This document shows, piece after piece, positions 992 to 8,000 of a stretch of 8,000 nt of DNA; within the stretch, counting starts at the first letter, position 1, and each line of letters starts with the position of its first letter. The DNA is from an uncultured archaeon. Its GTDB lineage: Archaea; Asgardarchaeota; Lokiarchaeia; Sigyniarchaeales; Promethearchaeaceae. The DNA is taken from positions 8,075-16,074 of the forward strand of contig CAYRPF010000073.1 of assembly GCA_964426185.1 (NCBI GenBank), in the 5' to 3' direction. Position numbers and translations under genes: made by a program. The notes beneath the pieces are model-generated. The model had not been told where the DNA came from. It worked only from the letters and a program-made list of their open reading frames with translations, and searched no databases.

Positions 992-2101
992 ATGAAAGAA
1001 TATCTACTCTTTGAAAAATACCCAAAGCTTAAAATTCTCGATCCCTTGCCTATAGTTAATAGTCCAACACCTATTTTCCCTTTAAAGCATACCAGTAAAG
1101 CACTAGGTGCTTCAATTTGGATTAAGAATGACGGAATAACCATGAACGAATATGGTGGTAATAAACCTCGAAAACTGGCATTTATCTTGCGAGATGTTAT
1201 CAAACAATCGAAAACCACTGTAATCACTCAAGGCGGATTGGGGAGCAACCATTGTCTTGCAACAGTGGTTAGCGCAAAAAAAGCAAATCTTAATGCAGCG
1301 ATCTATTTGGATTGGCAACGGTTAAACCCACATGTCCGCAATAATATGTTGGCCGACCATTATTTTGGCGCTGAAATGATCTATTCCCCAAACCGAGAAG
1401 AGACAACCAAGAAAATCCAAAAGCGTCTTATGGAGGATCCTAATGCATATTTTATACCTACAGGAGGTAGCTCTCCGTTGGGAACAGTGGGGTTTGTCAA
1501 TGCTGCATTTGAATTGGCAGAACAAATTAAAACTTTAAATATTCCTACCCCAGATCAAATTTATGTGGCTTTTGGTTCGGGAGGAACCTGTGCAGGGCTT
1601 TTAATTGGATCGATTCTAGCAGGTATACAAACCCAAATTGTTGGGGTTCAAGTTTATATCGAAAACGAAGATACAGTGTTGAAGCTTGCACAAGAAACAT
1701 TAGAACTCCTCCGGGAGATTGAACCTAATATTCCTCAATACACATCCAAAGAATTACGGCTGTATTTGAAAGTAACCGCCCAATTTTTTGGAGGAGAATA
1801 TGGGATAACAACTAAAGAAGGGATCGAAGCCCAGAAATTAATTCAATCAGATGGTATCCAGCTCGAAACAACCTATACAGCCAAATGTTTTTCCGCAGTG
1901 GTAGATCATTGTAACAATATTGAAACGAAATCAAATCGCAATATTCTGTACTGGCATACCTTTAATTCTCTAGATATTTCAAGTAAGTACTCTTCTGTAG
2001 ATTACAGGCAATTACATTCAGATTTTCATCAATTTTTCGATGGAACTGTGCCTTTTGATGAAGAAATTGTCAACTGCAAAGAGCAAAAATCATTTCATTG
2101 A
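992..2101 (+). CDS. PLP-dependent D-cysteine desulfhydrase / ACC deaminase family protein (fold type II)
   Basis: Motifs 'PTPIFPL', 'IWIKND', 'YGGNKPRKL' (PLP lysine), 'GGLGSNH', 'IPTGGSSPLGTVGF', 'VAFGSGGTCAGL', 'LETTYTAK', 'YWHT'. ATG at 992 is preferred over TTG at 980. Y-T rather than Y-E at the specificity position argues against a true ACC deaminase. Confidence 0.9.
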   Translation: MKEYLLFEKYPKLKILDPLPIVNSPTPIFPLKHTSKALGASIWIKNDGITMNEYGGNKPRKLAFILRDVIKQSKTTVITQGGLGSNHCLATVVSAKKANLNAAIYLDWQRLNPHVRNNMLADHYFGAEMIYSPNREETTKKIQKRLMEDPNAYFIPTGGSSPLGTVGFVNAAFELAEQIKTLNIPTPDQIYVAFGSGGTCAGLLIGSILAGIQTQIVGVQVYIENEDTVLKLAQETLELLREIEPNIPQYTSKELRLYLKVTAQFFGGEYGITTKEGIEAQKLIQSDGIQLETTYTAKCFSAVVDHCNNIETKSNRNILYWHTFNSLDISSKYSSVDYRQLHSDFHQFFDGTVPFDEEIVNCKEQKSFH

Positions 2102-3444: not shown

Positions 3445-5118
3445 ATGAGTAGAAAAATAATTTCAATGTCTGTTAATCGTAATTATAATAGTGAACGATT
3501 TCAAAATAATTCTTTCCAGGAAACAAATCCTCCAAAATCAAATTTCAACGAACACACTCAAAATTATTATTCACCTATAAAATCCTCCTATAACCTGAGA
3601 AAAACTAAAGAAAAAATCAATAATTCCATTTCCATTTCAAGTGGACTGAAATATCAAGATTTATTTCATTCCCGAAAAGATTTGTTCAGTATTGATTTGA
3701 AAAATCAATATTCTACCATTCTCGCTTATATTCATGAAAAAGATCGCTTTTTGCGCTCATTTTATCAAGAATTTTGCTCTCATCCATCTTTGGATTTAAC
3801 CCGATATAAATCCAACACTCTAAATCCATATACCGAATCTTCTTTCTTTCATACCCTTAATTATTCCCAAAAGCAACAACTGAATCATCTTCAAGGAGCT
3901 ATAATTGCAGCTGTCGACGGAGGATTGGGTATTCGCGAATTTCAAGGATTAGATTTGACTTTAATCAAGGCTGTGGTAGTGGAATATGATTTCAAAAATC
4001 CCTTTCATCCTCAGATCAGTTATTTCCCCACTAAAGAATCTGATGCCAATTTTGCCCTTTACACAGATTACGGGATTAATCGTTCCAAAAATGTCTCTTC
4101 ATTGGCAAGTTTTCGTCGAATTTTAGCAGAAAATTCAATGGTTCTCGACTATATAACCCATAAGAAGGAATTAGAGTTAAGAAACCGGGCAATCCCAATG
4201 ATCATAGTTCTTGACGGTAGCATTCATCTCCCACCTATTCAGCATTTCTACAACTTACTTCAGTCATTTCCCAAATTGTGTCTGGAGGTGATTGAGAGCT
4301 ACCGAATTTTATATCAAACCTGCGCGCAAAATGGAATTTGGTTGGTAGGTTCTGTAAAGGATTCACGCACCAGCCAATTGAGGGATCTTCTCATTAAAAG
4401 TATTCCCAAACTCCTTAAACAGCTAAACCTCAAGGATAATTCTTCTTTTCTTCAATTTAACTATCGACAGCAGCTGTTAGGATTATCGGATTATGAACTA
4501 CTATATCGGATAATGAAGCCACATTCACGCACAGTAATTATTCAAGAAACTCGAGATTTTAAGATAAATCCACCTTCTTTGTCCACATTACCATTATACG
4601 GCGAAAATACTATGTTTGGAGATCAAACCCTCATTTTAACTTCTTTATTTCAAACTCGGATCCAATATTCTGTTTTTTATTCCTATCTTAGACTATCTCA
4701 GAAAGATTTACCGCTACGATTTGAGCTCTATTGCCCGTCTTCAATTAATCCCGAAATCGGTCAAAAACAATTTGTTAAAATTATCGAAATCCTTTCACCA
4801 ATATCATCGATTGAACCGACTTGTACCTTGCCCCTCCCGCAAATTGAAGCTCATTTACGCGCCCACCTTTCCGAAAAAGAAGTTGATTTAATCCTTAATC
4901 CATTAATTTCCCGATTGAATCTTCCTTTTTCCAGCTTGGTCTCAGAAAATTTTCCAAAAAATCCATCTCCAGCTGAATCAGCCAATTTGGCTGAAAATAC
5001 AATCAAATCACGTGTAAAAAATACTTCAGATTCTTCTAACATTCAAGACAATACTCAATTAAGTTCTCAACCTTCATTTATTAGCTCGCGTCATACACGT
5101 CTAGATCTCCTTTTCTAA
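3445..5118 (+). CDS. nurA: NurA-family 5'-3' nuclease with long low-complexity N- and C-terminal extensions
   Basis: NurA RNase H-like motifs 'IIAAVDGG', 'IIVLDGSI', 'GSVKDSRT', 'PLRFE' and 'P..PQIEAHLRAHLS'. The exact start codon is uncertain. Confidence 0.82.
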   Translation: MSRKIISMSVNRNYNSERFQNNSFQETNPPKSNFNEHTQNYYSPIKSSYNLRKTKEKINNSISISSGLKYQDLFHSRKDLFSIDLKNQYSTILAYIHEKDRFLRSFYQEFCSHPSLDLTRYKSNTLNPYTESSFFHTLNYSQKQQLNHLQGAIIAAVDGGLGIREFQGLDLTLIKAVVVEYDFKNPFHPQISYFPTKESDANFALYTDYGINRSKNVSSLASFRRILAENSMVLDYITHKKELELRNRAIPMIIVLDGSIHLPPIQHFYNLLQSFPKLCLEVIESYRILYQTCAQNGIWLVGSVKDSRTSQLRDLLIKSIPKLLKQLNLKDNSSFLQFNYRQQLLGLSDYELLYRIMKPHSRTVIIQETRDFKINPPSLSTLPLYGENTMFGDQTLILTSLFQTRIQYSVFYSYLRLSQKDLPLRFELYCPSSINPEIGQKQFVKIIEILSPISSIEPTCTLPLPQIEAHLRAHLSEKEVDLILNPLISRLNLPFSSLVSENFPKNPSPAESANLAENTIKSRVKNTSDSSNIQDNTQLSSQPSFISSRHTRLDLLF

Positions 5119-5381
5119 TTTCACCAGCTTCATATTCAATCCAATATGTTACTTCTTAGCCAAGAGTTTATAGTGTTATAGTGAGTGGGTATATACCTTC
5201 TATGATCTTTAATCTCTCTCTTGGCTACTTTTTTTTACTCACATTTTTACAATTCATAAAAAGCTGTCTTTTATTAGGATATCAAAATAACTTTAATAAG
5301 TGACATTCACATATTTATTGATAGTATTCGAATTCTCCGATTATTAAACAATAAAGAAAATAATTCCTAAACGGTGAAATA

Positions 5382-5948
5382 ATGAGCACAGACTTTACCT
5401 TTAAACTTTTGATGCTGGGTGACGCAAGTGTTGGAAAAACAAGTCTTACACATCGCTATATCACAGGAGTTTTCATAGATTCGCCCCGTCTCACAATAGG
5501 CGTCGATTTTTTCTCTAAAAAAGTAAGACTTCCCAATGGAAAAAAGGTAAAACTGCAAATTTGGGACTTCGGTGGTGAGGGACGTTTTCGATTTCTACTT
5601 CCAACGTATTCTAAGGGATCTAATGCTGCTTTATTCCTATACGATATTACATCAGAGAAATCCTTAGAAAGTATTGGAGCTTGGCTTGAGATTGTCCGTA
5701 AAAATGCAGGAAATATACCTATTTTTTTAGTGGGATCCAAAAGCGATTTAGAACCATATCGAAAAGTTTCAGCAGAATATGCTCAAGAAGTTGCCGATAG
5801 GAACTCATGTATATGCCATATCGAGCTTTCATCTAAAACAGGGGAAAATGTGGAAGAATCGTTTAAACTTATTACAGAATTACTTATTGAGGAATCGAAT
5901 CGATTATTTAAGGAATTTCTTGAAATGCAGGAGTCCAAAGAACCCTAA
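5382..5948 (+). CDS. Rab/Ras-like small GTPase (Asgard-type eukaryotic signature protein), 188 aa
   Basis: G1 'GDASVGKTS', G2/RabF1 'TIGVDF', RabF2/G3 'KLQIWDFGGE', 'RFRFL', 'LYDIT', G4 'SKSD', G5 'SSK'. No C-terminal Cys prenylation motif. SD-like GGTGA at 5373-5377. Confidence 0.95.
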   Translation: MSTDFTFKLLMLGDASVGKTSLTHRYITGVFIDSPRLTIGVDFFSKKVRLPNGKKVKLQIWDFGGEGRFRFLLPTYSKGSNAALFLYDITSEKSLESIGAWLEIVRKNAGNIPIFLVGSKSDLEPYRKVSAEYAQEVADRNSCICHIELSSKTGENVEESFKLITELLIEESNRLFKEFLEMQESKEP

Positions 5949-7353: not shown

Positions 7354-7476
7354 TACTTTTCGGTCATAGCACCCGGAAACCATCTGTTCCCTTTCCGAAC
7401 ACAGAAATTAAGACGGGCCGCGTTGCAGTTAAGTAGTGATATCTCAAATATCGCGAACCTGTGAATCTGAAAAGTA
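7354..7476 (+). rRNA. rrf: 5S ribosomal RNA, stand-alone (~123 nt)
   Basis: Helix I TACTTTTCGG (7354-7363) pairs with CTGAAAAGTA (7467-7476). Conserved 5S landmarks 'GGTCATAGC', 'TCTGTTCCCTTTCCGAACACAGAAATTAAG', loop E 'AGTA...GCGAA' and helix IV GTGATAT/ATATCGC are present, and the length fits. Confidence 0.95.
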
Positions 7477-7498: not shown

Positions 7499-7722
7499 TA
7501 AACTGCTTGACTACCAAAAACCATTTTTCATCTATTTAATAAACAGTTGAAGGATTTACAATATTACCACGCAACAAAGAGTTGACATGTAGCATTTTAC
7601 ACGATATTACAATGTAATGTGTTGAATTACAGGATGCGATCACGTATATGGTGGTGTAAATTGAATTTTACGGTTTAATTATAAGTTAGTTTTCAAAAAA
7701 GGTAGAGATTCAGGAGTTCGGA

Positions 7723-7788
7723 TTAATAATGGCTTCTAATAAAGGAATATTCATGTTCGGTTCGGATTTGGGATAAGGATTTTTTCAT
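7723..7788 (-). CDS. Putative 21-aa micropeptide MKKSLSQIRTEHEYSFIRSHY (repeat unit 1)
   Basis: Manual translation ATG...TAA. Upstream context GAAGTGAAAAAA-ATG resembles the GGTGAAATA-ATG context of the GTPase gene. No homology is recognised. Confidence 0.45.
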   Translation of the reverse strand: MKKSLSQIRTEHEYSFIRSHY

Positions 7789-7855
7789 TTTTTTCACTTC
7801 TTTATGGTTTAATTTTGAGTTAGGTTAAAAAAAGGTAGAGATTCAGGCATTCAGA

Positions 7856-7921
7856 TTAATAATGGCTTCTAATAAAGGAATATTCATGTTCGGCTCGGAT
7901 TTGGGATAAGGATTTTTTCAT
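7856..7921 (-). CDS. Putative 21-aa micropeptide MKKSLSQIRAEHEYSFIRSHY (repeat unit 2)
   Basis: Manual translation ATG...TAA with upstream AAAGTGAAAAAA-ATG. A third copy's 3' end (..SHY*) is visible at 7988-7999. Confidence 0.45.
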   Translation of the reverse strand: MKKSLSQIRAEHEYSFIRSHY

Positions 7922-8000
7922 TTTTTTCACTTTTTTATGGTTTAATTTGAGTTAGGTTAAAAAAAGGTAGAGATTCAGGCATTCAGATTAATAATGGCTT

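Follow-up and report, generated by a model that had tools for sequence, protein, structure and literature searches.

A 133-bp tandem repeat in Ca. Harpocratesius as a candidate amplification of a small-protein cistron

At the end of a contig from an uncultured Asgard archaeon lies a row of near-identical units, each holding a small open reading frame (ORF) of 21 codons. Is this row an amplified gene for a very small protein, an array of regulatory or RNA elements, or a repeat without function? The window (the whole stretch of 8,000 nucleotides that was analysed, G000:C73:8075-16074) belongs to a genome of 3.26 Mb with 34% GC in 155 contigs, and also encodes a Ras-family GTPase and a NurA-like protein. 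For comparison, the closed genome of the congener Ca. Harpocratesius repetitus FW102 (G001, JAIZWK010000001.1) was used.

Structure and variation of the array

TRF reported an array at 7667-8000 of the window with a period of 133, 2.5 copies, 94% matches and a score of 582, which is far beyond chance. The contig terminates where the window does, so the array runs off the sequence, and the near-identical tandem units that the original prediction had seen leaving the window were recovered. The arrangement first described for the minus strand (AAGTGA, A6, ATG, 21 codons, TAA, 22 nt, then T6 or T7) was likewise read from the sequence. The frame is called ORF2 below, and all of its units have GTGA at -10 before a start codon, then 21 codons and a stop, and a run of T6-T10 after a further 22 nt.

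Unit 1 is the border unit (7667..7802, minus strand; TRF and unit alignment): it is the last on the minus strand and the most diverged, and is identical in L111, a contig of a sister MAG. Its ORF2 copy (7723..7788, minus strand; 21 codons plus TAA) was matched by tblastn and by the peptide profile (E 7e-12). A GTGA Shine-Dalgarno-like motif (7794..7797, minus strand) starts at -10 from its ATG, and a T6 run (7695..7700, minus strand), a candidate archaeal oligo-T terminator, lies 22 nt past the stop. Oligo-T runs terminate archaeal transcription. Unit 2 (7803..7935, minus strand; TRF and alignment) is a full 133-bp unit with the second ORF2 copy (7856..7921, minus strand; 21 codons plus TAA; tblastn and profile), its GTGA motif at -10 (7927..7930, minus strand) and a T7 run (7827..7833, minus strand, read from the sequence). 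Unit 3 (7936..8000, minus strand; sequence and alignment) is cut by the contig end and contains the 3' flank, a T7 run (7959-7965) and the last codons and stop of a third ORF2 (7988-8000). Residue 10 is the only peptide difference between the two full copies: Thr in copy 1 (7726-7788, minus strand) and Ala in copy 2 (7859-7921, minus strand).

Two other features were recorded in this part of the window. The first copy of a 5S rRNA gene (7356..7475, plus strand; Rfam RF00001, 58.4 bits, E 1.4e-10) is convergent with the small-ORF module. A 15-codon ORF is nested antisense in each unit (7865..7912, plus strand) and was judged incidental: in H. repetitus it has no ATG, no matching stop and a BLOSUM score of 0, and its changes within the array are two radical replacements versus one synonymous.

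Sequence variation is concentrated outside ORF2. The statement that units 1 and 2 differ mostly outside the frame held in its direction, and more strongly than claimed, although the alignment counted 11 differences and not six: 10 of the 11, including the indel, are outside the ORF and one is inside. Among all copies in the genome, the 66-nt ORF has five variable columns and the other 67 nt have 14, plus four single-base indel columns. The sole length change in the ORF region of any copy is a 9-nt duplication, in frame. Over all assemblies, the changes in ORF2 comprise three synonymous (Lys3, Ala10, Arg18), two conservative (Ser4Thr, Ala10Thr) and the replacement of ATG by GTG in one unit type, where the start is still valid. 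Frameshifts, stops and lost start codons had been named as signs against a gene; no copy in the four assemblies carries a frameshift or a stop. The synonymous excess within the array falls short of significance (about P 0.1), and linkage of the variants follows a higher-order A-B-A-B pattern.

Two classes of repeat could be set aside, as already proposed. The 133-bp units abut without spacers, as opposed to CRISPR repeats of about 23-50 bp with unique spacers, and the 133-bp period contrasts with the approximately 36 nt of type III (ToxIN-like) antitoxin repeats, with no toxin gene adjoining.

Two loci in this genome and an orthologous module in H. repetitus

The repeat is part of a larger module, which on the minus strand consists of a leader of about 375 bp, ORF1 (24 codons), an oligo-T run and the repeated ORF2 units. 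The leader ends with a TATA box inside ATACACAC-N15-ATACACAC, followed by a predicted 5' UTR of about 14 nt with GTGA, then ORF1 and T9. The first ORF2 unit is homologous to the ORF1 unit in its 5' part (A-rich stretch, GTGA, start) and in its 3' part (CCTGAAT..TACC, T run, AAACC). From this homology at both parts it follows that ORF1 and ORF2 are diverged paralogues and that the array arose by amplification of ORF2.

The module was met at four contig ends in this genome. The C124 end carries 3.7 units of 134-143 bp in the A-B-A-B pattern, the C40 start also carries a repeat unit, and the C109 start is a second copy of the right-hand flank (C109:1-377 versus C40:140-514, 91% identity). Two left and two right borders imply two loci of the module, with at least three ORF2 copies at the window locus and at least four at the other (C124) locus. 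Past the module, at C40:825-944, a second 5S rRNA copy is present.

The 203-aa protein encoded on C40, looked up by exact sequence, led to JBQSKF010000136.1 of the sister MAG GCA_054387695.1 (L111), which spans the window locus completely and has flanks identical to those of the window. The order in L111, in window orientation, is esterase, 5S rRNA, 190 bp, two ORF2 units, ORF1 unit, leader, about 300 bp, the second 5S rRNA with a duplicated promoter, and the 203-aa gene. At the position of unit 3, L111 has the ORF1 unit, so that the window genome has at least one further ORF2 copy. Copy number at the window locus would thus be two in L111 and at least three here, in near-identical strains, with the reservation that short-read assemblers can collapse repeats. 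The same look-up gave no exact-sequence record for the esterase, the 711-aa protein or the acyltransferase of the flanks, probably owing to differing start codons. The second locus is also present in L118 (ENA) and L083 (JGI), with leader, ORF1, ORF2 units and a contig break within the array. The repeat therefore occurs in independent assemblies from other samples and is not the assembly artefact that had been named as a possible refutation. The array is short, with two to at least four units per locus, and the idea of a long array was dropped.

To the right of the array, where partner genes had been expected, the contigs carry ORF1, the promoter, the second 5S gene, the 203-aa gene, an MFS transporter gene and an EutA-like gene. 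The flanking genes as a whole (Pfam) are those for the esterase, 5S rRNA, the 203-aa protein, MFS, EutA-like and 711-aa proteins, carbonic anhydrase, acyltransferase, a TrmB-like protein and a cyclase; Pfam scans found no toxin, RT or nuclease gene flanking either locus or the locus in H. repetitus.

The 133-bp unit as such is absent from H. repetitus. When the leader was used as the query, a promoter of 88% identity was found at G001:2251016-2251115, and behind it an ORF1 of 26 codons (L050:4097-4177), T8, AGGTGA and a single ORF2 of 29 codons (L050:4253-4342). DNA identity to this genome is 53-59%, yet frame, GTGA spacing and C-terminal residues have all been preserved. The proposal that each unit is a mini-gene for a 21-aa micropeptide gained support from this orthologue, which is single-copy, has an open frame and shares promoter and GTGA spacing, and has to be cut back in one respect: a clear promoter is present in the leader alone, and the TATA-like stretch within the units is weak, so that the idea of every unit as a complete mini-gene is not supported. 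In H. repetitus the TATA-like ATATTTAAAC is placed for a leaderless ORF2 mRNA; the homologous stretch of this genome, AAAATTAAAC, is weaker and lies 7 nt nearer to the start.

The H. repetitus flanks match those of C109 (acyltransferase) and C124 (791/711-aa protein and MFS transporter). This synteny indicates that the C124-C109 locus is ancestral, and the window locus between the two 5S genes is then best read as a secondary copy of the whole module. Past its esterase gene, H. repetitus has a tandem array of three 5S genes (period 374 bp), after which comes the homologue of C40:7948-8271; the spacer of this 5S array has no similarity to the repeat unit. A gene for a TrmB-like regulator, at L050:2787-3791, lies directly upstream of ORF1-ORF2 in H. 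repetitus (no homologue was found in G000), and a cyclase-family gene follows 144 nt downstream on the same strand.

The paired motif ATACACAC-N12-15-ATACACAC occurs three times in G000 (C40, C109, C66), twice in H. repetitus and not at all in a reversed control, and it always precedes GTGA, ATG and an ORF of 24-26 codons. Besides the module, it marks ORF3 (26 codons), which has the same type of promoter elsewhere in both genomes and, in both species, has a gene for an RHH/winged-helix regulator about 160 nt downstream. The boxes are likely to be an operator for a DNA-binding regulator. The motif was found nowhere else in the genomes of 185,579 species, and in public collections the promoter pattern was confined to H. 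repetitus and the JGI contig L083, of the same species. The other 24 metagenome matches were rejected as ACAC-type simple repeats or unrelated sequences, as was a single match in G010, which lacks the GTGA/ORF arrangement.

Searches with the unit and the peptide were similarly confined. In 60 related genomes the unit was not found (T-rich low-complexity matches alone), the exact core pattern gave 0 matches in two large collections of genome and metagenome contigs, and a peptide profile run over 14 genomes of the family matched G000 and H. repetitus alone. The best other profile match, in G010 (E 0.17), was discarded because it lies inside a 472-aa gene in another frame. The conservation that the original prediction wanted checked in relatives is thus seen in H. 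repetitus, where the frame is kept, and is without matches in the other relatives. Pfam returned nothing for any of the peptides at E up to 10, and an exact-sequence look-up in a collection of 15 billion proteins found none of them. The family has been missed by every gene caller and is most likely limited to the genus Harpocratesius.

Coding potential of ORF2

The case for coding was assessed on a comparative sample of two species. Over the last 17 codons of ORF2, nucleotide identity is 53%, while 6 of 17 residues are identical and several others similar; three codons are synonymous between the species, for Leu (TTA/CTT), Arg (AGA/CGA) and Glu (GAA/GAG). The ORF2 block scored 33 in BLOSUM versus 6.1 under random substitutions (P 0.004), with P 0.017 for ORF1 and P 2e-4 for the three ORF blocks together; all blocks were chosen post hoc, and the null model spreads substitutions evenly while the real identities are gathered in an 18-nt core. 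Of the six frames, the proposed one has the top score for all three ORFs. For ORF1 and ORF3 no other frame is open in both species; the tested block of ORF2 has one further frame without stops.

Length and start signals add to this comparison. The six ORFs (ORF1-3 of both species) are all 21-29 codons long, a length that only 11% of the intergenic ATGs of this genome give (about 31% give 21 or more codons). The GTGA motif, which is complementary to the 16S rRNA 3' end GGATCACCTCCT, starts at -10 or -9 for every ORF, where it also peaks in front of 1,918 long ORFs of this genome. The start signals thus sit at the usual spacing of the organism, which is one of the criteria applied to small-protein genes.

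Other observations temper the conclusion. Between-species differences in ORF2 fall on codon positions 7/9/8 with no third-position enrichment, which suggests weak or saturated purifying selection on the peptide. Conservation of the promoter and start region far exceeds that of the ORF bodies, and this also fits a situation in which translation or transcription matters and the peptide does not. The ORF3 orthologues have length alone in common, with no residue similarity. Within ORF2, length and sequence vary at the N-terminus, and it is the C-terminal half that is conserved. Conservation beyond DNA similarity gives moderate support for a small-protein gene, within the limits of two species and post hoc blocks. 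Taking together the reading as an amplified gene and the reading as a leader peptide (see below), ORF2 is probably translated.

The predicted ORF2 peptide has a negative mean hydrophobicity. Alternation typical of a beta-strand over the C-terminal 12 residues is marginal in ORF1 (P about 0.04-0.05) and absent in the ORF2 of this genome. The composition of the peptide is the default product of AT-rich DNA.

On the minus strand, the unit folds with an MFE of -1.4 kcal/mol versus -8.4 for shuffled sequences (z +2.59) and is unusually unstructured, which fits an open mRNA and not a structured RNA; the plus-strand unit folds at -16.3 versus -20.7 kcal/mol (z +1.47).

Interpretation, alternatives and related systems

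The reading that we favour, at a probability of roughly 0.55, is that the repeat is a recent tandem amplification of the ORF2 cistron within a small-protein module specific to Ca. Harpocratesius, with a copy number that varies between strains. Under this reading, a TATA promoter flanked by two ATACACAC boxes would drive ORF1 (24-26 codons) and then ORF2 (21-29 codons), each ORF having GTGA at the preferred Shine-Dalgarno distance before it and an oligo-T run after it. The ORF2 unit would have been duplicated by unequal recombination or slippage, to at least four copies at the ancestral locus, and the whole module (leader, ORF1 and ORF2 copies) would have been copied to a second locus between two 5S genes, the one in the window. 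A regulator would bind the ATACACAC boxes. If TATA box and start are 30 nt apart, as at the 5S gene of the window, transcripts from the leader promoter should begin a few bases ahead of the ORF1 GTGA; the downstream units would be transcribed either by polymerase reading through the T runs or from weak promoters inside the units. Since each cistron is followed by a T run (T6-T10), at which archaeal RNA polymerase should stop, and the units have no convincing promoter of their own, the downstream copies may be poorly expressed. The ORFs would be translated into basic, hydrophilic cytoplasmic peptides without signal or transmembrane segment, and extra ORF2 copies would raise their dosage.

The main rival, unlikely though by no means negligible, is a neutral satellite: a recent functionless tandem duplication in a repeat-prone genome, with the ORF and its signals incidental or remnants. 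The genus owes its name to repeats that account for 4% of the genome (PMC8813620), and the three 5S genes of H. repetitus show that a different tandem array occupies the same intergenic position there, so the site seems to be prone to duplication. The absence of the unit from the 60 relatives and both contig collections, the unlike copy numbers of near-identical strains and the ease with which intergenic ATGs reach 21 codons would all be expected of such a satellite. It accounts poorly for an orthologous segment that has kept promoter, GTGA spacing and open frame at such low DNA identity, for the way in which variation and all four out-of-frame indels avoid the ORF, and for a module that is intact at two loci (leader 91% identical). 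Regulation by leader peptides or uORFs, in which translation of the ORF would control read-through of the T run into downstream genes and the repeats would be stacked attenuators, is an improbable account of the array. An oligo-T run within 22-30 nt after each ORF, the positions of the cyclase-family gene behind ORF1-ORF2 in H. repetitus and of the regulator gene behind ORF3 in both species, and regulatory signals that are better conserved than the peptide all speak for it, and they recall the leader peptides and attenuators of enterobacteria, with a short ORF closely before a U run and, at some loci, upstream of genes. Enterobacterial attenuators differ in their alternative hairpins and diagnostic codon runs: here the unit RNA has no such hairpins and is hardly structured, no run of one rare or regulatory amino acid is present, C-terminal residues are kept beyond the DNA level, and downstream of the window array there is just the convergent 5S rRNA gene. 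Attenuation is possible at those loci that have a downstream gene.

The remaining explanations are weaker still. To our knowledge, toxin-antitoxin systems of type I are not established in archaea, and type I-like repeats are very improbable here. Typical type I loci are unannotated short ORFs in tandem duplicates within one intergenic region (PMC2887945), and the ORFs here are indeed short (<60 codons) and in tandem in one intergenic region; the plus strand of each unit also has T runs and a TATA-like stretch, and bulky and charged residues stand at the C-terminus. The likeness to ibs-sib, ldr-rdl and zor-orz of E. coli (Fozo et al. 2010, PMC2887945) extends to unannotated ORFs of about 20-35 codons with their own start signals per copy, head-to-tail in one intergenic region and in strain-variable number, but those encode hydrophobic membrane toxins with a proven antisense RNA, whereas the predicted peptide here is hydrophilic and basic and the host archaeal. 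At most 5 of 15 residues are hydrophobic (6 of 15 in H. repetitus), against a criterion of at least 10 of 15 being I, V, L, F, C, M or A (PMC2887945); the helical hydrophobic moment is not above that of shuffles, with no amphipathic-helix signal, the plus-strand RNA is unstructured (z +1.5) and the plus-strand ORF is not conserved. There is scarcely more than a slight chance that ORF2 is a multicopy precursor of a secreted or modified peptide (RiPP, bacteriocin-like or signalling). A short, fast-evolving, multicopy frame with Ser, His and Tyr residues, strain-variable in number and with MFS transporters two or three genes off at both loci, would suit such a precursor. The RiPP cassette of the original prediction nevertheless found no backing in the Pfam scans, which revealed no radical SAM, YcaO or other maturation enzyme, no peptidase and no ABC exporter at either locus or in H. 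repetitus; the peptide also has no signal peptide, leader/core split or Cys, and its variable N-terminus and conserved C-terminus are the opposite of the RiPP leader/core pattern. An array of small non-coding RNAs, with a functional product from either strand, has an equally slender prospect. T runs end each unit on both strands, and the 18-nt core (around codons 8-13), about 83% DNA-identical between the species, could be a base-pairing seed. Both strands fold worse than their dinucleotide shuffles (z +1.5 and +2.6), which makes a structured RNA unlikely; the unit matched no Rfam family at E up to 1 (the sole match in the window is 5S rRNA), C/D or H/ACA box arrangements are absent, and the open frame and Shine-Dalgarno spacing would be left as coincidences. 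The suggestion of repeated small RNAs was not supported. A C/D-box sRNA (no C-box/D-box arrangement, no Rfam match) and a replication origin or centromere-like site (no supporting genes) were also considered and rejected.

For the preferred reading, an amplified small-protein cistron, a close formal parallel is the psm-alpha operon of Staphylococcus aureus, with four tandem cistrons of about 21 codons, each with its ribosome-binding site. PSMs are amphipathic helices with a dedicated ABC exporter, and are made from one transcript without terminators between the cistrons. Shared features are the row of near-identical cistrons of about 21 codons, the individual Shine-Dalgarno sites, the lack of a signal peptide and dosage by multiplication; in contrast, the array here has neither amphipathic moment nor exporter, and a T run follows each cistron. 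Archaeal small proteins have been detected by Ribo-seq and mass spectrometry in Haloferax volcanii (PMC10117724) and Methanosarcina mazei (MtrR, MtrI; PMC13370731, PMC12774963). Like ORF2, they are lineage-restricted, have a few dozen residues or fewer and were overlooked by annotation pipelines, and where their role is known they exert it by binding to larger protein complexes (PMC10117724, PMC13370731, PMC12774963); their translation and partners were established by experiment, whereas translation of ORF2 is deduced from sequence. In the archaeal small-protein literature that was searched, none was reported as a tandem array or from Asgard archaea.

A more speculative extension, which we regard as quite unlikely, would join ORF1-3 into a genus-specific regulon of fast-evolving micropeptides under ATACACAC-box promoters, in which ORF2 would be dosage-sensitive and its gene number tuned by amplification. 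With the same low confidence, ORF2 might, for example, titrate a transcription regulator, a ribosome-associated factor or a similar partner, and its number would differ between co-existing strains. If true, this would be the first copy-number-variable micropeptide system described in archaea.

Work on Asgard genomes has looked mainly for large eukaryote-like proteins, and the small proteins encoded in these genomes are essentially uncharted. The locus offers a concrete example of a candidate Asgard small-protein gene, with a shared promoter/operator, a one-copy and a many-copy state in sister species, and variation between strains. If the peptide is not made, the array would be one more tandem repeat of the kind that gave H. 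repetitus its name; if it is made, the locus would give access to regulation and to recent gene amplification in a lineage now amenable to enrichment in culture.

5S rRNA genes and the adjoining segment

Two 5S rRNA gene copies were located in this species (window 7356-7475; contig C40, L038 825-944), spaced about 1.35 kb apart, with one on either side of the small-ORF module (promoter leader, ORF1 and the repeated ORF2 units). The closed congener Ca. H. repetitus FW102 carries three copies with a 374-bp period (L034 5762-6879); 5S gene prediction was not possible according to the paper describing that organism (PMC8813620). In the genus Harpocratesius, the 5S rRNA genes occur as tandem duplicates, separate from 16S/23S.

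The 5S genes and a 107-aa gene adjoin in H. repetitus, whereas on C40 (L038 1-7950) they are separated by about 8 kb whose genes include those for a 203-aa protein, an MFS transporter, a 266-aa protein and a EutA-like protein. This difference is either an insertion in this species or a deletion in H. repetitus.

Second ORF2 array and a gene pair in the window

In the second ORF2 array (contig C124, L037 4855-5365), two unit types alternate in a higher-order A-B-A-B pattern. Type A units carry an in-frame 9-nt duplication, Thr4 and two synonymous changes, and type B units have a GTG start codon and a single-base insertion in the 3' flank. This arrangement implies that a two-unit block was duplicated.

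Elsewhere in the window (3445-5948), two neighbouring genes encode a Ras-family small GTPase (188 aa, E 4e-43) and a protein of 557 aa that matches NurA weakly (E 8e-9). The GTPase gene is of a eukaryote-like kind typical of Asgard archaea.

Candidate regulator and shared promoter

In H. repetitus, the gene for a TrmB-family regulator (334 aa, two wHTH matches; L050 2787-3791) is located immediately upstream of the ORF1-ORF2 module, and its product may bind the ATACACAC boxes. No homologue of this regulator was found in G000, the genome studied here, by tblastn (E 1e-4).

A third small ORF, of 26 codons in both genomes (contig C66, L070 565-690; H. repetitus L069, about 1440-1530, minus strand), is preceded by the same ATACACAC-TATA-ATACACAC promoter as the ORF1-ORF2 module and by the Shine-Dalgarno-like motif GTGA. 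About 160 nt downstream lies a conserved gene whose 345-aa product gives RHH (CopG) and winged-helix hits. The small ORFs with ATACACAC promoters may constitute a small regulon with a common operator.
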